DNA of 64,000 bases from Bacteroidales bacterium (GTDB lineage: Bacteria; Bacteroidota; Bacteroidia; Bacteroidales; DTGW01), in NCBI GenBank assembly GCA_026416115.1, contig JAOAFU010000234.1:3393-67392 (forward strand), read 5' to 3'. The notes under the pieces are model-generated. The model was not told the origin of the DNA. It searched no databases and worked only from the letters and a program-made list of their open reading frames with translations. Below are positions 3,645 through 10,631 of this stretch, piece by piece. Each line of letters starts with the position of its first letter. The stretch's first letter is position 1. The translations under genes were made by a program, and so were the position numbers.

Positions 3645-4165
3645 TAGGAGGAAAACACAAGGGAAGATTACTGAAAGGGAAAGTAACAGAAGCTCGTCCT
3701 ACAACCGATTTTGCTAAAGAAAGTCTTTTCAATATACTTAACAATTACTTCCATTTTGAACAAATATCGGTATTAGACCTATTTGCTGGTACAGGTAGTA
3801 TAAGTTTTGAATTTGCGTCGAGGGGTTGTAACAGTATTGACTTAGTTGAATGGAACCATCATAATTATCAATACATTTGTAATAATATTAAAGAGTTGGG
3901 GTTAAGCTTTATTAAGCCATATAAATCCGACGTTTTTAATTATCTACTATTGTGTAAAAAACAGTACGATATCATTTTTGCCGATCCACCCTACGAGTTG
4001 GAAGGTATTTTAAAAATACCTGACTTAATATTCGAAAATAATTTGGTTAAACCCAACGGAATGCTGATAATTGAGCATTCTAAAAACACTGATTTTCAAA
4101 GTCATTCAAATTTCTGGCAGCATAGAAGGTATGGTGCAGTTCATTTTTCATTTTTTTTACCCTAA
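3635..4165 (+). CDS. rsmD: 16S rRNA (guanine966-N2)-methyltransferase RsmD
   Basis: 176 aa. N-terminus MRIIGGKHKGRLL, SAM loop DLFAGTGSISFE and FADPPY motif. Confidence 0.85.
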   Translation: MRIIGGKHKGRLLKGKVTEARPTTDFAKESLFNILNNYFHFEQISVLDLFAGTGSISFEFASRGCNSIDLVEWNHHNYQYICNNIKELGLSFIKPYKSDVFNYLLLCKKQYDIIFADPPYELEGILKIPDLIFENNLVKPNGMLIIEHSKNTDFQSHSNFWQHRRYGAVHFSFFLP

Positions 4166-4170
4166 AAACT

Positions 4171-4200
4171 TTTGCAGAAAAAAAAAATATACTACATTTG
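4171..4200 (+). promoter_or_regulatory. Bacteroidota-type promoter for tRNA-Asp (TTTG ... TAcaTTTG)
   Basis: TTTG at 4171-4174 and TACATTTG at 4193-4200 match the Bacteroides sigma-A consensus (-33 TTTG, -7 TAnnTTTG). The tRNA starts at 4228. Confidence 0.4.
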
Positions 4201-4227
4201 CAGCGCTGAAAATATTACAGCCAACGA

Positions 4228-4301
4228 GGTTCGGTAGTTCAGTTGGTTAGAATACATGCCTGTCACGCATGGGGTCGCGGGTTCGAGTCCCGTCCGAACC
4301 G
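4228..4301 (+). tRNA. tRNA-Asp (anticodon GTC)
   Basis: Cloverleaf read by eye. Acceptor stem GGTTCGG/CCGAACC, D-arm AGTTCAGTTGGTTAGAAT, anticodon loop CTGTCAC, T-arm GGGTTCGAGTCCC, discriminator G. CCA is not encoded. Confidence 0.95.
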
Positions 4302-4336
4302 CAAAAAATTTAAAAACTTTTTTCATCAAAATTTGT

Positions 4337-4344
4337 TATATTTG
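4337..4344 (+). promoter_or_regulatory. -7 box (TATATTTG) of the putative promoter for the leader/pheA operon
   Basis: Exact TAnnTTTG match 16 nt upstream of the leader-peptide ATG. The -33 element is weak. Confidence 0.4.
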
Positions 4345-4359
4345 TAAAAAAGAATTGAG

Positions 4360-4434
4360 ATGCATACTTATTTTAGCAATGGTTATTTTTATTTCTTTTT
4401 TTGGTTTACTTCGGAATTACCGGGGCTAAAATAG
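4360..4434 (+). CDS. Aromatic-rich leader peptide (24 aa) of the aromatic amino-acid operon
   Basis: ATG 4360 to TAG 4432-4434 gives MHTYFSNGYFYFFFWFTSELPGLK. Residues 4-16 contain 6 Phe, 3 Tyr and 1 Trp. Sits between a promoter-like box and a terminator hairpin just upstream of pheA. Too short for the ORF track. Confidence 0.6.
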   Translation: MHTYFSNGYFYFFFWFTSELPGLK

Positions 4435-4465
4435 GTATGATATTACAATATCAAAAAGTCCCGGT
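4419..4465 (+). promoter_or_regulatory. Putative antiterminator pairing of the attenuator
   Basis: ACCGGGGCT (4419-4427, end of leader ORF) can pair with AGTCCCGGT (4457-4465), giving 9 bp including one G:U. This sequesters the 5' arm of the terminator and is mutually exclusive with the terminator helix. Confidence 0.45.
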
Positions 4466-4486
4466 TAAACACCGGGATTTTTTTTT
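4459..4486 (+). terminator. Attenuator terminator immediately upstream of pheA
   Basis: Stem TCCCGGT / ACCGGGA (4459-4465 / 4471-4477), loop TAAAC, followed by nine T (4478-4486). The upstream A-run can extend the stem. It ends 14 nt before the pheA ATG. Confidence 0.7.
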
Positions 4487-4500
4487 AATTTAACGAGAAT

Positions 4501-5358
4501 ATGAGCACAAAAAAAAATGTTAAAAAAATTGCCATCCAAGGAGGCTATGGCGCATTTCACGAAATTGCCGCCAAACATTATTTCGAGAATGAAGAAATAG
4601 AAATTGTAACTGCAAACACTTTTAAAGATCTTTTTAAATCGCTCAGAAACAACCATGCCGATTTAGGTATAATGGCAATTGAAAATTCAATTGCCGGAAG
4701 CATACTCCCCAATTACATGCTTTTGCTCGAATCGAACATGAAAATTATTGGGGAAATTTATTTGCGCATAAAGCAAAACCTTGCCGCATTACCTGGTACA
4801 CGTATTGAAGATATTGAAGAAGTATACTCACAGCCAATCGCCCTGTTACAATGTCAGTTGTTTTTTGATAACTACCCTCATATAAAATTGGTCGATAGTA
4901 TCGACACTGCATTAAGTGCTAAAGAGATTGCTGAAAAAAAGCTAAAAAATAGGGGGGCTATTTGTTCAAAGCTTGCAGCACAAAAGTATGGGCTTGAAAT
5001 TATAGCAGAAGGCATAGAAACAAACAAAACAAATTACACACGCTTTTTAATTTTATCGGACCGGATTGGATATCATAAGATGTCCAAAAATTTGGAAAAA
5101 GCTTCGCTTAGTTTTGCTCTTAAACACGAAACAGGAAGCCTTTCAAAAGTGTTATCCATATTATCGTATTACGGAATCAATTTAACAAAAATCCAATCGA
5201 TGCCCATTCCAGGAAAGGACTGGGAATATCAGTTTTTCGTCGATGTAACCTTCGACGATTATGTAATGTACCGGCAATCGCTCGATGCAATAAGGCCTTT
5301 TACGTCGGGACTTGAGATAATGGGCGAGTATGCCAAAGGAAAAACAGTGATGGAATAA
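4501..5358 (+). CDS. pheA: Prephenate dehydratase (PDT domain plus C-terminal ACT domain)
   Basis: 285 aa. IAIQGGYGAFHE N-terminus, TRF motif region (NYTRFLIL) and a C-terminal ACT-like regulatory domain (GSLSKVLSILSYYGINLTKIQSMP). Confidence 0.9.
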   Translation: MSTKKNVKKIAIQGGYGAFHEIAAKHYFENEEIEIVTANTFKDLFKSLRNNHADLGIMAIENSIAGSILPNYMLLLESNMKIIGEIYLRIKQNLAALPGTRIEDIEEVYSQPIALLQCQLFFDNYPHIKLVDSIDTALSAKEIAEKKLKNRGAICSKLAAQKYGLEIIAEGIETNKTNYTRFLILSDRIGYHKMSKNLEKASLSFALKHETGSLSKVLSILSYYGINLTKIQSMPIPGKDWEYQFFVDVTFDDYVMYRQSLDAIRPFTSGLEIMGEYAKGKTVME

Positions 5359-5371
5359 AGACAAATTAGTC

Positions 5372-6454
5372 ATGGAAACAATGAATTTACAACCTTTTAC
5401 ATTTGAAGGTATTTCGAACGAGCGACCTTTGGTAATAGCAGGTCCTTGTAGTGCAGAGTCGGAAGCTCAAATGGTCCAAACAGCTCAACAACTCGCTGCT
5501 CTAGGAATTAAAATTTTCCGGGCCGGTATATGGAAACCCCGAACTAGGCCAGGTAGTTTTGAAGGATATGGTTCTTTAGCTCTTCCGTGGATGCAAAGTG
5601 TAAAAGAAGCAACTGGTATGTTAACAGCCACGGAGGTAGCAAACGTAAAGCATGTATACGAGGCGCTCAAAGCGGGAATTGATATTCTTTGGATTGGGGC
5701 ACGAACTTCTGCCAATCCATTTGCTGTGCAAGAAATAGCTGATGCATTGCGTGGAGTTGATGTGCCTGTTTTGGTTAAAAACCCTGTTAATCCCGACCTT
5801 GAACTTTGGATTGGAGCTATCGAGCGGCTTTATATGGCAGGGGTTACCCGTCTGGCTGCAGGGCACAGAGGCTTCTCAACTTACGAGAAAATAGCTTACC
5901 GAAACGACCCTAATTGGCAAATCCCTATCGAACTTCGTCGTCGAATTCCCAATATTCCATTGATTGTCGATCCAAGCCATATCTGCGGCAAGCGCGATAC
6001 CCTTTTTGAAATTACACAAAAAGCCATGGACTTGAATTACGATGGTATTATCATCGAGGCCCATATCGATCCCGACCATGCTATGAGCGATGCAAAACAA
6101 CAATTACGACCCGATCAGCTTGGCGAATTACTTAAAAAACTTGTTATCCGTAAAGAATATATCGAGAATGGTTCGTTGGTTACTATCGAAGAACTTCGAT
6201 CGCAGATCGACAAAATCGACGATAAAATTGTCGATCTTCTCGAAAAACGAATGCATATAGCTGAAGAAATTGGTAAGATAAAAAAAGAAAACAACATTGC
6301 TGTTTTGCAAACCAAACGTTGGCATCAAATAATTACCCAGCGCATGAAAGAAGCTCGAGAAAAAGGTCTGAGCGAACATTTTATTGAAAATATTTTCAGA
6401 GCTATTCACGAAGAATCAATTAACCATCAGACCCGAATAATGAACGAAAACTAA
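5372..6454 (+). CDS. Bifunctional 3-deoxy-7-phosphoheptulonate (DAHP) synthase / chorismate mutase type II
   Basis: 360 aa. Type I-beta DAHPS/KdsA-like N-terminal region (RPLVIAGPCSAESE, KPRTRPGSFEG, DPSH). C-terminal ~90 aa AroQ-type chorismate mutase helix bundle (IEELRSQIDKIDDKIVDLLEKRMHIAEEIGKIK). Confidence 0.9.
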   Translation: METMNLQPFTFEGISNERPLVIAGPCSAESEAQMVQTAQQLAALGIKIFRAGIWKPRTRPGSFEGYGSLALPWMQSVKEATGMLTATEVANVKHVYEALKAGIDILWIGARTSANPFAVQEIADALRGVDVPVLVKNPVNPDLELWIGAIERLYMAGVTRLAAGHRGFSTYEKIAYRNDPNWQIPIELRRRIPNIPLIVDPSHICGKRDTLFEITQKAMDLNYDGIIIEAHIDPDHAMSDAKQQLRPDQLGELLKKLVIRKEYIENGSLVTIEELRSQIDKIDDKIVDLLEKRMHIAEEIGKIKKENNIAVLQTKRWHQIITQRMKEAREKGLSEHFIENIFRAIHEESINHQTRIMNEN

Positions 6455-6461
6455 TGCCTTT

Positions 6462-7502
6462 ATGGAAGAAATTACTTTACATACCACCAATAAAACATCT
6501 CGAATTCTTATTGGAGAGAGGCTTGATCATTTAACAAAATACCTTCCCTCAAGTACAAAAATTGTTATTCTATCTGATAGTAATATTATTAAGTTCTATA
6601 AACATAAACTACCAAATTATCCAATAATCGAAATTGGCACAGGCGAAGGTATTAAAAACCTCAACACCATCGACTATATCATGGGGCAACTTATCAAACT
6701 TGAAGCCGATCGTACCTCATTTCTGGTAGGTATTGGAGGTGGAATAGTGTGCGATATTGCCGGTTTTGCTGCCTCAATTTACATGCGTGGTATTCGTTTT
6801 GGTTTTGTGAGCACTACCCTTCTTAGCCAAGTCGATGCAAGTGTTGGTGGTAAAAATGGGGTTAATTACGAGGGTTATAAAAATATGGTGGGCGTATTCA
6901 ACCAGCCCGAATTTGTAATCTGCGATACTTCAATGCTTTCTACCCTACCTCGTGAAGAATATATTGGTGGATATGCCGAAGTTATTAAACATGGCTGTAT
7001 CAGAAGTACTGAATTGTTTGAGTTTCTTGAAAAAAATGTATCAAAAGCATTATCATACGACGAATCGACAATAATCTACTGTGTTGCTCAATCGGTTAAA
7101 ATTAAAGCATCGGTTGTTGAGCATGATGAAAGAGAGAAAGGCGAACGTCGTATTTTAAACTTTGGTCACACCTTTGCCCATGCTATAGAAAAAATTTCTA
7201 CACTGCCCCATGGGCAGGCCGTAGCAATTGGTATGAACTATGCTTCATATATTTCCTACAAATTAGGAATGATAACTAAAAATGACTACCAACGAATTCG
7301 CCAATTGATTATTAACTTTCAATTACCCGTTAATTTTTCGTTCGATACCGAAACGCTTCTCGATGCTATGCGAAAAGATAAAAAGCGAGAAGGTGAAGAT
7401 ATACATCTTATTTTACTCTCATCAATTGGAAATGCAATAGTAAAACCTGTTAGCTATCAACAACTTAAAACATTTATCCATGATTTGCGTGAGCATCAGT
7501 GA
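6462..7502 (+). CDS. aroB: 3-dehydroquinate synthase
   Basis: 346 aa. GGGIVCDIAGFAAS nucleotide loop, DASVGGKNGVN and metal ligands in EVIKHG ... HTFAHAIE. Confidence 0.9.
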   Translation: MEEITLHTTNKTSRILIGERLDHLTKYLPSSTKIVILSDSNIIKFYKHKLPNYPIIEIGTGEGIKNLNTIDYIMGQLIKLEADRTSFLVGIGGGIVCDIAGFAASIYMRGIRFGFVSTTLLSQVDASVGGKNGVNYEGYKNMVGVFNQPEFVICDTSMLSTLPREEYIGGYAEVIKHGCIRSTELFEFLEKNVSKALSYDESTIIYCVAQSVKIKASVVEHDEREKGERRILNFGHTFAHAIEKISTLPHGQAVAIGMNYASYISYKLGMITKNDYQRIRQLIINFQLPVNFSFDTETLLDAMRKDKKREGEDIHLILLSSIGNAIVKPVSYQQLKTFIHDLREHQ

Positions 7503-8121
7503 AAATAATTTTGAAAAATGTCTTGACTTGATAAAAAAGTTTGAGTTATCTGAGATACGCTTAGATTTATGTCAATTCGATAAAACGCAAATTGAGAAGA
7601 TATTTTCATCGGGACAAAAGCTTATAGCTACATGCCGACCCTCTCCCAGCATGAATGAAAATGAAAGACTTGAAATTTTGCTGACAGCAATCCGGTCGGG
7701 TGCAAAATATGTTGATGTTGAAATAGAAACCGATTATAGTTTAAAACAAAAAATAATCTCAGAGGCTATAATGCGAGAATGCGATGTAATTATTTCGTAT
7801 CATAATTTTGACTATACCCCTACCTTGGAACAATTAAAAATTATTGTAAACCAATGCTTTGACATGGGAGCAAATGTAGCAAAAGTTGCGTGTATGGTTC
7901 GAGAACCTTCAGATAATGCTCGATTATTAGCTCTATATCATAATGGAAAAAGAATTGTAGCATTAGGAATGGGAGAATTAGGAAAAATATCGAGGATTGC
8001 TGCCCCCTTTTTAGGTGCAGAATTTACCTTTGCTTCTGCAAATGATGAATTCTCGACTGCACCTGGACAGATAAGCTATCATAAGCTAAACACTATTATT
8101 GAGTTACTCAAAAATTCATAA
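7480..8121 (+). CDS. aroD: Type I 3-dehydroquinate dehydratase
   Basis: 213 aa. EIRLD motif near the N-terminus (SEIRLDL), YVDVE, SYHNF and the Schiff-base Lys region (ANVAKVACM). Overlaps aroB by 23 nt. Confidence 0.85.
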   Translation: MICVSISENNFEKCLDLIKKFELSEIRLDLCQFDKTQIEKIFSSGQKLIATCRPSPSMNENERLEILLTAIRSGAKYVDVEIETDYSLKQKIISEAIMRECDVIISYHNFDYTPTLEQLKIIVNQCFDMGANVAKVACMVREPSDNARLLALYHNGKRIVALGMGELGKISRIAAPFLGAEFTFASANDEFSTAPGQISYHKLNTIIELLKNS

Positions 8122-8123
8122 GC

Positions 8124-9116
8124 ATGAATAGTATAGGCACACTTTTTCGCCTAAGTATATTTGGCGAGTCGCATGGAAAATGTGTAGGAATCGTTGTAGA
8201 TGGTGTACCTGCGGGAATTCCTTTAACTGAATCCGATTTAGAAAAAGACCTATCGCGACGTAAAAGTGGAGCAAAAGGAACTACCCCACGCCAGGAAGCA
8301 GATATTCCCCGAATTATGAGTGGTACTTTTAACGACCATACTACGGGGGCACCCATCATGATACTTTTCGAGAATACTAACACACGCTCGCGCGACTATA
8401 GTTTTTTGCTTGAGACCCCCCGTCCAGGTCATGCCGATTTTGTAGCACACAAAAAATTTGGAGGTTTTGAAGATTATAGGGGAGGTGGACACTTTTCCGG
8501 TCGACTCACGTTGGGAATAGTTGCTGCTGGTGTAATTGCAAAAAAAATGATTCATCCCATCGAAGTAAAATCGTCACTAATAGAGGCTGGCGGTTCAACA
8601 AACATAGACGAAGCCGTTGAGAAAGCTATTGCCGAACAAGACTCTATTGGAGGAATTGTAGAAACTATTGCTACAAATATGCCAGTAGGACTTGGAGAAC
8701 CTTTTTTTGGAAATATTAAGGCTATCATTGCTCACTATATTTTTTCAATCCCTGCAATAAAAGGAATTGAATTTGGATCGGGTTTTGCTGCAGCTCGAAT
8801 GCGAGGATCGGAACATAACGATAAATTTATTGATATAAACGGAAAAACAGCAACCAATTTTGCAGGAGGAATTAATGGTGGAATATCGAACGGAAACGAC
8901 CTGATTTTCCGTGTAGCTGTAAAACCAACTAGTAGCATCCATGCTACTCAACACACCATGAATATGAAAACAGGAACAATGACCGATCTAAACGTAGAAG
9001 GACGACACGATACCTGCATTGCACTTAGAGTACCCGTTGTGGTCGAAGCTGCTACAGCAATAGCCCTAGCGGATCTTATGCTACAGGAACAAAGAGTTAA
9101 ACGTGTTTTTAAGTAA
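8124..9116 (+). CDS. aroC: Chorismate synthase
   Basis: 330 aa. FGESHG signature (SIFGESHGKCVG), RPGHAD, GGGHFSGR. Starts 2 nt after aroD. Confidence 0.9.
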   Translation: MNSIGTLFRLSIFGESHGKCVGIVVDGVPAGIPLTESDLEKDLSRRKSGAKGTTPRQEADIPRIMSGTFNDHTTGAPIMILFENTNTRSRDYSFLLETPRPGHADFVAHKKFGGFEDYRGGGHFSGRLTLGIVAAGVIAKKMIHPIEVKSSLIEAGGSTNIDEAVEKAIAEQDSIGGIVETIATNMPVGLGEPFFGNIKAIIAHYIFSIPAIKGIEFGSGFAAARMRGSEHNDKFIDINGKTATNFAGGINGGISNGNDLIFRVAVKPTSSIHATQHTMNMKTGTMTDLNVEGRHDTCIALRVPVVVEAATAIALADLMLQEQRVKRVFK

Positions 9117-9224: not shown

Positions 9225-10631
9225 ATGTCCGAAAGCAATGAAGAACTGGTAAAACGAATAGCAAAACTGGTAAAACAAAATAAAGAGCTTAAAGAAGAAA
9301 TTACACGCCTGAACAACTTGTATCTGAAATTGCAGGACGAAAACGATAATCTCAAAAAGATTCTCAGTAAATTTCAACAACCTACAAACCTTGCTAGTGA
9401 AATTGAGGATCAGAAAACCATGCGATTTCAGATGGCAACAGTACTTTTTGCCAACATCCATGGTTTTTCGCGTATTAGCGATCAAATCAACTCTCAGAAA
9501 GTTATCGATCAGCTCGATTCTATTATGTTTCATTTCGATAACATTGTTCAAAAATATAAAATTGAGAAAATCAAAACCATTGGCGATACGCTAATGTGCG
9601 CTGGTGGTATTCCCCAAAAAAATATTACCAACCCTGTTGAGGTTGTTTTGTCAGCTTTGGAAATGATTCAAATTGTCGACGAAATTCAGCATCAATCCGA
9701 GAATGGAAAAATATGGGAAATTAAAATGGGTATCCATACCGGACCTGTTACTGTAAATATGGGGGGAAATAAAAAGAATACATTTGAAATTAAAGGTGAT
9801 ACTGTCAATATAGCAACAAGGCTCGAATCATCGGGAGTGCCTGGGAATATTATAATTTCGGCCAATACATACGAACTGGTTAAAGAATTTTTTACCTGCG
9901 AATACATGGGAAAAATGCCTATTAAATACCATGGCGACATAGATATATATCTGGTAAAAGGCATAAAACCCGAATTGTCGGTGAATGAACAAGGAAGAAT
10001 TCCCAATGAACTTTTCAGGACACGCTTCGGATTATTACAATTTAATGACCTTCAGGAAATAATTCTTGATCGGCTTGAGAAAGAATTACCTCCTTATTTG
10101 TATTATCATAATGTAAAACACACGGTAGATGTTATTACCGAAGTTGAGCTAATTGGATGGGGTGAAGGGGTAAGCGACGAAGAAATATTACTTTTGAAAA
10201 CTGCAGCTCTGTTTCACGATTCAGGACATATCATCTCTTACGACAATCATGAGTACTTTGGTACCGTCCTTGCACGCGAATATTTGCCAAAATTTAACTA
10301 CACTAACGAGCAGATCGAAATTATTTGCGAACTAATAATGGCTACCAAGTTACCACCCAAACCGAAAAATCTGCTCGAAAAAATTATGTGCGATGCCGAT
10401 CTTGATTATTTGGGACGTTCTGACTTCATCCCTGTATCGAATACTCTTTACAGAGAACTAAAGGAACAAAATAAGATTGGGAGTTTGAACGACTGGAATA
10501 AACTTCAGTTAAAATTTATCTCTGGTCATCAGTATTTTACCCAAACTGCTCTTAGTCTTAGAGAGGTGAACAAGCAAAAACAAATTGAAAGGATTATACA
10601 ACTTATAGAACCCGAACCCAAAAATTTATAA
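9225..10631 (+). CDS. Coiled-coil / class III nucleotidyl cyclase domain / HD phosphohydrolase domain fusion protein
   Basis: 468 aa. Heptad-rich N-terminus. Cyclase motifs VLFANIHGFS, IKTIGDTLMCAGG and GDTVNIATRLES. HD motifs HNVKHTVDV, FHDSGH and DADLDYLG. Confidence 0.8.
   Translation: MSESNEELVKRIAKLVKQNKELKEEITRLNNLYLKLQDENDNLKKILSKFQQPTNLASEIEDQKTMRFQMATVLFANIHGFSRISDQINSQKVIDQLDSIMFHFDNIVQKYKIEKIKTIGDTLMCAGGIPQKNITNPVEVVLSALEMIQIVDEIQHQSENGKIWEIKMGIHTGPVTVNMGGNKKNTFEIKGDTVNIATRLESSGVPGNIIISANTYELVKEFFTCEYMGKMPIKYHGDIDIYLVKGIKPELSVNEQGRIPNELFRTRFGLLQFNDLQEIILDRLEKELPPYLYYHNVKHTVDVITEVELIGWGEGVSDEEILLLKTAALFHDSGHIISYDNHEYFGTVLAREYLPKFNYTNEQIEIICELIMATKLPPKPKNLLEKIMCDADLDYLGRSDFIPVSNTLYRELKEQNKIGSLNDWNKLQLKFISGHQYFTQTALSLREVNKQKQIERIIQLIEPEPKNL

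Follow-up and report, generated by a model that had tools for sequence, protein, structure and literature searches.

A probable leader-peptide attenuator for phenylalanine and tyrosine before the pheA operon of a Bacteroidales bacterium

The window, that is, the whole 64-kb stretch of DNA analysed here, carries an aromatic amino-acid operon of an uncultured Bacteroidales bacterium on its forward strand. Pfam domains confirm the gene order read previously from the letters alone: pheA, encoding prephenate dehydratase with an ACT domain, is followed by the genes for DAHP synthase/chorismate mutase, AroB, AroD and AroC (Table 1), and the tight spacing of the genes from 5372 to 9116 suggests that they are co-transcribed. 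The PheA protein is 100% identical to a protein of a Bacteroidales MAG. Directly after aroC, a gene at 9225-10631 encodes an adenylate/guanylate cyclase domain fused to an HD domain, and the genes for an ABM monooxygenase and an Fe-alcohol dehydrogenase come next; all three appear to be unrelated to the regulatory element described below. On the other side of the operon, a tRNA-Asp (GTC) gene was found at 4228-4302 by both ARAGORN and Rfam, 57 nt upstream of the leader ATG. L001 and L081, the closest relatives, have this tRNA gene before the leader as well, and it is absent from that place in more distant ones.

Table 1. Features of the pheA leader and operon in the window, and first units of tandem pairs in related loci.
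Feature	Coordinates	Strand	Basis
Bacteroidota-type -7 promoter box TATATTTG, consensus TAnnTTTG	4337..4344	+	sequence and conservation
Region 1, 5' strand of the long anti-antiterminator (1:2) helix, including leader AUG and codons 1-6	4352..4377	+	MFE folds
Leader ORF, 24 codons, MHTYFSNGYFYFFFWFTSELPGLK, stop TAG	4360..4434	+	sequence; equivalents in 70/80 pheA loci
Regulatory codon run Y4-F16 (6 Phe, 3 Tyr, 1 Trp)	4369..4407	+	sequence; stalling predicted
Antiterminator 5' arm ACCGGGGCU (region 2a)	4419..4427	+	folds, complementarity, covariation (66 leaders)
Region 2b, 3' strand of the 1:2 helix, spanning the leader stop codon	4425..4452	+	folds
Terminator 5' arm (region 3), GC core 4457-4465, common to the antiterminator	4453..4465	+	folds, terminator scan, covariation
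Terminator 3' arm (region 4)	4471..4483	+	folds, terminator scan, covariation
U9 tract of intrinsic terminator; predicted 3' end of attenuated transcript	4478..4486	+	sequence, terminator scan
pheA, prephenate dehydratase + ACT domain, first regulated gene	4501..5358	+	Pfam PF00800, PF01842
DAHP synthase/chorismate mutase	5372-6454	+	Pfam
aroB	6462-7502	+	Pfam
aroD	7480-8121	+	Pfam
aroC	8124-9116	+	Pfam
First of two tandem units, L002	2213-2331		
First of two tandem units, L019 and L026	2241-2339		
First of two tandem units, L029	2124-2248		
First of two tandem units, L057	2029-2155		
First of two tandem units, L074	2147-2271		
First of two tandem units, L088	511-602		

Upstream of pheA, a short ORF starts with the ATG at 4360 and stops with the TAG at 4432-4434. 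Ten of the thirteen residues at positions 4-16 of its product, MHTYFSNGYFYFFFWFTSELPGLK, are aromatic (6 F, 3 Y and 1 W); the sequence-only reading had proposed this ORF, and its coordinates, sequence and aromatic count all agree with ours. Of the 936 ORFs in the window that start with ATG and have 10-45 codons (both strands), the leader ORF ranks first with 10 aromatic residues in its best 13-residue span, and the runner-up has 7. The whole 64-kb window was also scanned for a second leader-like ORF with single-amino-acid runs, and none was convincing. The promoter box that had been noted before the leader is present, although the spacing to the ATG is 15 nt and not 16. Among related loci, 54 of 67 have TAnnTTTG 8-34 nt before the leader ATG, versus 3.6% of background 60-nt windows. 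From what is generally known of Bacteroidetes promoters, transcription presumably starts a few nt past the TATATTTG box, at about 4350.

Between the leader ORF and pheA, TCCCGGT (4459-4465) faces ACCGGGA (4471-4477), followed by nine T at 4478-4486, and 14 nt separate the end of this tract from the pheA ATG (4501). The GC-rich 7-bp core and the T-run had been recognized before, while the full 13-bp stem (4453-4483), which was returned by a simple terminator scan, had been overlooked. The hairpin folds at -16.4 kcal/mol. With the A-tract AAAAAG 5' of the stem and the U-tract 3' of it, the structure is also recognized as a minus-strand terminator (4477..4459), and the A-tract flanks the stem in the same way in most relatives.

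The end of the leader ORF is complementary to the 5' arm of this terminator, as had been claimed: ACCGGGGCT (4419-4427) pairs with AGTCCCGGT (4457-4465) over 9 bp, including one G:U. Only 15 nonamers on the plus strand of the 64-kb window could pair fully with 4457-4465, which is about one per 4 kb, so that the probability of finding one by chance in the roughly 40 nt that separate the aromatic run from the terminator is about 1%. The leader region as a whole folds at -45.3 kcal/mol (z = -6.7 against shuffles), and the leader ORF with its helices is beyond chance. The equilibrium energies of the two competing helices are nearly equal, -16.1 kcal/mol for the antiterminator next to the terminator value given above, and therefore the kinetics, that is, the order of synthesis, would decide the outcome. 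The E. coli trp attenuator also depends on the order of synthesis, but there the terminator is the more stable helix. The window holds three features of a classical attenuator of the trpL/pheL/hisL type: a short ORF rich in codons for the amino acids that the regulated pathway produces, an intrinsic terminator between this ORF and the first structural gene, and an antiterminator helix that shares a strand with the terminator.

The same layout was then sought across 80 pheA loci of Bacteroidales and neighbouring groups, obtained by a pattern scan of species-representative genomes with PheA alignment; Parabacteroides, Bacteroides, Alistipes, Dysgonomonas, Paludibacter, Marinilabiliaceae, Lentimicrobiaceae and Saprospiraceae are represented among them. 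An ATG-ORF with at least six aromatic residues in ten occurs inside the 350 nt upstream of pheA in 70 of the 80 loci, and the same criterion is satisfied by 4 of 952 control windows taken elsewhere in the same loci. These F/Y-rich mini-ORFs are 16-28 codons long, with MNRFSFTYYFYYFYFSRVKAGVCM and MTRFFTYFYFYFYFKR as typical peptides, and they are also present in nine closer metagenomic relatives, whose PheA proteins are 75-93% identical to that of the window. Of 73 loci, 69 have a hairpin with a T-run after the leader ORF. Almost all loci possess a G-rich segment that is complementary to the 5' arm of their own terminator and is located either directly behind the leader stop codon or 11-20 nt ahead of it. 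For example, GAGCAGGAU matches AUCCUGCUC, AGGCAGGA matches UCCUGCC, GGUGGGC matches ACCCGCC and GGUCGGG matches CCCGGCU. The mean duplex energy is -12.3 kcal/mol with the locus's own arm, compared with -8.2 kcal/mol when arms are swapped between loci and -8.3 kcal/mol when the arm is reversed.

Covariation was evaluated on alignment A2, a sequence-only MAFFT alignment of 66 leaders that was not fitted to the helices; L008 and L031, where the wrong ORF had been picked automatically, and L024, with a poor antiterminator, were left out. For the terminator, 95.5% of the cells are paired (slid controls 33-60%) and 97 cells carry double changes, against a shuffled mean of 31.6. For the antiterminator, 76% of the cells are paired (slid controls 34-50%), with 71 double-change cells against a shuffled mean of 33, and individual pairs alternate between G-C (33) and A-U (19) or between C-G (16) and U-A (14). 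In neither helix did any of the 500 shuffles attain the observed covariation score or percentage of pairing. The comparison with relatives therefore bears out both the short aromatic ORF and the two mutually exclusive helices.

These data also weigh on the possibility that the hairpin is a constitutive terminator or insulator for tRNA-Asp or neighbouring transcription, and that the aromatic ORF is a by-product of T-rich intergenic DNA. The region is indeed T-rich, the tRNA gene lies close upstream, and the stem with its A-tract and U-tract can be read as a terminator from the other strand as well. However, the promoter box sits between the tRNA and the leader, and the upstream neighbours vary among relatives (methyltransferase/tRNA, SpoIIE-domain protein, DJ-1, TIR protein, ABC ATPase) while leader and terminator stay with pheA. 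The concentration of aromatic ORFs upstream of pheA relative to the control windows speaks against it too, and the covarying antiterminator would be left unexplained. We consequently regard a constitutive terminator as very improbable.

The peptide itself is conserved in one respect. The F/Y run is the sole feature kept family-wide, whereas the length, the N-terminus and the C-terminus vary freely. Among close relatives, the nucleotides CCGGGGC are fixed, but the frame in which the leader crosses them and the position of the stop codon differ, giving the tails PGLK*, SRG*, RRG*, HRGQYSIA* and TGAELLLQ* (window 4419-4434; L083, L085, L087, L088, L091 and L092). The 3' end of the ORF is thus constrained as RNA and the F/Y run as codons. 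It might be argued that the product of the mini-ORF is a small hydrophobic or aromatic peptide with a function of its own, and that the hairpins are incidental, since the ORF is conserved and probably translated, and small hydrophobic proteins are common. A peptide conserved only in its F/Y composition, with 16-28 residues, two variable termini and a C-terminal frame that shifts over a fixed RNA sequence, hardly suits such a role, nor does its constant place between promoter box and terminator, directly before pheA; this explanation seems to us scarcely credible.

In addition to the terminator and antiterminator, the leader of the window can form a third helix, which the sequence-only reading had missed. 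In the MFE fold, 4352-4377 pairs with 4425-4452 and 4380-4383 with 4419-4422, and the hairpin spanning 4352-4452 folds at -27.8 kcal/mol. Region 2b overlaps the antiterminator arm by GCU. The arm at 4419-4427 accordingly has alternative partners, either 4457-4465, or 4380-4383 and 4375-4377. This 1:2 helix ties up the antiterminator arm in ribosome-free RNA, and the predicted default of an untranslated leader in the window is therefore termination. L001 keeps the helix by one-sided compatible changes, at -22.6 kcal/mol. A family-wide 1:2 candidate, UUUACAUA with UAUGUAAA (A2 columns 40-49 and 151-160), is 65% paired, compared with 59% in shuffles and 57% after a slide of +/-2, owing to TA periodicity, and the region-swap duplex test gives a small margin (-9.7 vs -7.9 kcal/mol). 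Of 75 loci folded without a ribosome, only 20 have the arm sequestered by upstream pairing, and 52 form the antiterminator by default. The 1:2 helix thus appears to be lineage-specific and lacks family-wide support.

The effect of a translating ribosome was modelled by folding the nascent RNA 4346-4470, in which the 3' arm of the terminator is still unmade, with a 30-nt ribosome mask. In the absence of a ribosome, the 1:2 helix forms and the terminator 5' arm is free; in the full-length RNA, the 1:2 helix coexists with the terminator. With the A-site on Y4 or Y9, the antiterminator 4419-4427:4457-4465 belongs to the MFE structure (-18.1 kcal/mol), and with the ribosome on the UAG, the antiterminator arm is covered and the terminator forms. 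Hence the masked states reproduce the logic of termination and antitermination that had been proposed for the two competing structures. For A-site positions 4393-4405, the folding program lets regions 1 and 2 pair again around the masked ribosome, a sterically doubtful result; antitermination from such late stalls would depend on queued ribosomes or steric exclusion to prevent this pairing. The earlier idea that a stall anywhere on 4369-4407 would free 4419-4427 holds for the earlier stalls, while a ribosome on the last one or two aromatic codons (4402-4407) reaches the 5' end of the arm. Across the family, an early stall places the antiterminator in the MFE structure in 69 of 75 loci, and half or more of the antiterminator arm is covered by a ribosome at the stop codon in 68 of 75; overall, the mask folds behave as predicted in 67-69 of the 75 loci. 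In the window, the arm ends 4 nt before the UAG, and this placement of the stop codon agrees with an attenuator by geometry and thermodynamics only.

Taken together, the mini-ORF, the terminator, the antiterminator and the mask folds lend computational backing to the attenuator interpretation. We consider it highly probable that this is a ribosome-mediated leader-peptide transcription attenuator, which would sense charged tRNA-Phe and tRNA-Tyr, and marginally tRNA-Trp, and control read-through into the pheA operon; the leader very probably switches the aromatic operon on when Phe or Tyr runs short. According to the model, transcription would start just past TATATTTG, and a ribosome would load on the AUG at 4360 while RNA polymerase advances. 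If Phe and Tyr are plentiful, the ribosome would reach the UAG at 4432 and cover ACCGGGGCU (4419-4427), so that the terminator at 4453-4483 with its U9 could form and transcription would end near 4486. If charged tRNA-Phe or tRNA-Tyr is short, the codon run 4369..4407 is the proposed stall site; a ribosome stalled in 4369-4400 would occupy or block region 1, and the free 4419-4427 would pair with 4457-4465 once the latter is made, which would prevent the terminator and allow the operon to be transcribed. If the leader is not translated at all, 4352-4377 would pair with 4425-4452 and 4380-4383 with 4419-4422, the arm would be sequestered and termination would be expected. Each of these states is thermodynamically feasible in the folds. 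The scheme presumes coupling of translation to transcription, and we know of no demonstration of such coupling in Bacteroidota. Joint sensing of Phe and Tyr fits an operon that joins pheA with common-pathway genes.

A stalled ribosome could also act by other means, with control exerted mainly via Rho, mRNA stability or pheA translation and not via the intrinsic terminator, for instance if stalling exposed RNA to Rho or altered access to the pheA start. The pheA ATG is just 14 nt past the U-tract, and uncoupling by stalled ribosomes does invite Rho in other bacteria. On the other hand, the canonical GC-rich stem with U9 is conserved and covarying, and Rho polarity would make starvation lower expression, the opposite of what a biosynthetic operon requires. 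Such control is very improbable in our estimation, though slightly less so than the other alternatives considered here.

Known RNA families were searched with Rfam 15, and none reached its gathering score over the leader in the window or in nine relatives. With permissive E-values, sub-threshold matches only were obtained (Trp_leader, Phe_leader and assorted sRNAs). Phe_leader (RF01859) scores 24.3 bits against a gathering score of 55, so no homology to it is detectable, and Trp_leader (RF00513) scores 26.2 bits against 41; Bacteroid-trp (RF01692) is absent among the matches up to E = 10. A further candidate, the HPnc0260 antisense RNA on the minus strand at 4270-4396 (42 bits against 59), was rejected as the reverse complement of the 3' half of tRNA-Asp. 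No T-box or riboswitch model matches at E <= 10 in 4100-4600, and none does at the gathering score in nine relatives. A translation-independent switch (riboswitch, T-box or TRAP-like protein target) sensing an amino acid or tRNA directly would likewise use alternative terminator and antiterminator helices as its expression platform. Nevertheless, besides the lack of any Rfam family at the gathering score, there is no conserved aptamer-like structure, and what is conserved from the start to the arm is an in-frame F/Y codon run with its ATG and stop, so that a switch of this kind is most unlikely.

Compared with E. coli pheL-pheA, the attenuator proposed here is alike in its logic, in the first regulated gene, in the ORF of regulatory codons, in the predicted 1:2, 2:3 and 3:4 helices and in the terminator before pheA. 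It differs in that pheL senses Phe alone, whereas the sensor of the window mixes Phe and Tyr with one Trp, and in having no Shine-Dalgarno sequence, a Bacteroidota-type promoter and common-pathway genes in the operon. The element would work like E. coli pheL, yet it is outside the Rfam family of the latter. Attenuators that respond to several amino acids are known from the thr operon (Thr and Ile) and from ilvGMEDA (Ile, Leu and Val). As in these, a single leader would read the availability of at least two amino acids that the regulated pathway produces; the amino acids and the phylum are different, and in the window the F and Y codons alternate (FYFYF). Attenuators in Bacteroidetes/Chlorobi are reportedly mentioned in the abstract of a 2004 study by Vitreschak and colleagues.

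The closest precedent comes from Flavobacterium psychrophilum, where a leader-peptide attenuation element is described, in the supplement, for the pheA-aspC3 mRNA (Guerin et al., 2021; PMC9723704). Terminator and antiterminator hairpins are drawn there, read-through is reported to be condition-dependent by RNA-seq, and the element is conserved in Flavobacteriaceae and has no Rfam match (PMC9723704). An equivalent pheA leader element is thus already described for the phylum. The published sequence lies likewise in the pheA 5' region and contains the aromatic-rich short ORF MNTNNTFYSNNSFYFYWNIGRDCYMVI, whose G-rich end segment GGGAUUGU is complementary to the 5' arm of the terminator, ACAAUCCC; a U-run comes next, and this layout is that of the window and of the 66 aligned leaders. 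The two differ in order and class, Flavobacteriales there and Bacteroidales here, and in operon content, which is pheA-DAHPS/CM-aroB-aroD-aroC here; only the window has the extra 5' helix of -27.8 kcal/mol, in which the start codon and part of the antiterminator arm are hidden. The same source reports a WWW leader before trpE in F. psychrophilum (PMC9723704). The Bacteroid-trp motif (RF01692) is listed as a cis-regulatory motif in Bacteroidetes (Weinberg, 2010); it and E. coli trpL (RF00513) are also cis-regulatory leaders of an aromatic amino-acid operon, but the operon and the regulatory codons are different. F/Y uORFs occur before shikimate genes in the genomes analysed by Stav et al. (2019), and sORFs of B. 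thetaiotaomicron were described only as ‘reminiscent of leader peptides’ (Ryan et al., 2020). Bacteroidetes are unmentioned by Naville and Gautheret (2010), and our literature search found no description of a Bacteroides or Bacteroidales pheA leader.

The mechanism is a textbook one, and the conceptual gain is small. What is added here is the breadth across Bacteroidales and the covariation of the antiterminator, neither of which is documented in the accessible part of Guerin et al. (2021), together with the apparently lineage-specific third helix and the tandem units in some relatives. A regulatory element that had no annotation, located before the aromatic operon of an uncultured bacterium, gains a well-supported one, and the design is common to most Bacteroidales, among them the gut genera Parabacteroides, Bacteroides, Alistipes and Dysgonomonas. 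Since the family is absent from Rfam, the covariation alignment could seed a model and improve the annotation of gut-microbiome genomes. A wider view, which we put forward tentatively and hold to be rather doubtful as a whole, is that the window element belongs to a phylum-wide Phe and Tyr attenuator family not curated in Rfam, that its lineage gained the -27.8 kcal/mol helix burying the start codon and antiterminator arm and so turned the untranslated default from read-through to termination, and that some relatives duplicated the whole unit in tandem. If such a phylum-wide family exists, the lead ribosome and RNA polymerase would have to be kinetically coupled in Bacteroidota, where initiation is not led by a Shine-Dalgarno sequence, and functional leader-peptide attenuators would be indirect evidence for transcription-translation coupling where initiation differs from that in E. 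coli.

Seven relatives carry tandem attenuator units upstream of pheA, while the window has one. Each tandem unit is complete, with an F/Y leader ORF, a G-rich antiterminator segment and a terminator (the first units are listed in Table 1), and the arrangement may give a sharper response. Finally, a pheA of Bacteroidales type (54% identity) occurs in L046, a GC-rich MAG that is labelled Lentisphaerae, and mis-binning or horizontal transfer may account for it. A weaker candidate leader, MTALRYYGTSYAFRFSG, was found there at 157-285, with its own covarying antiterminator and terminator.
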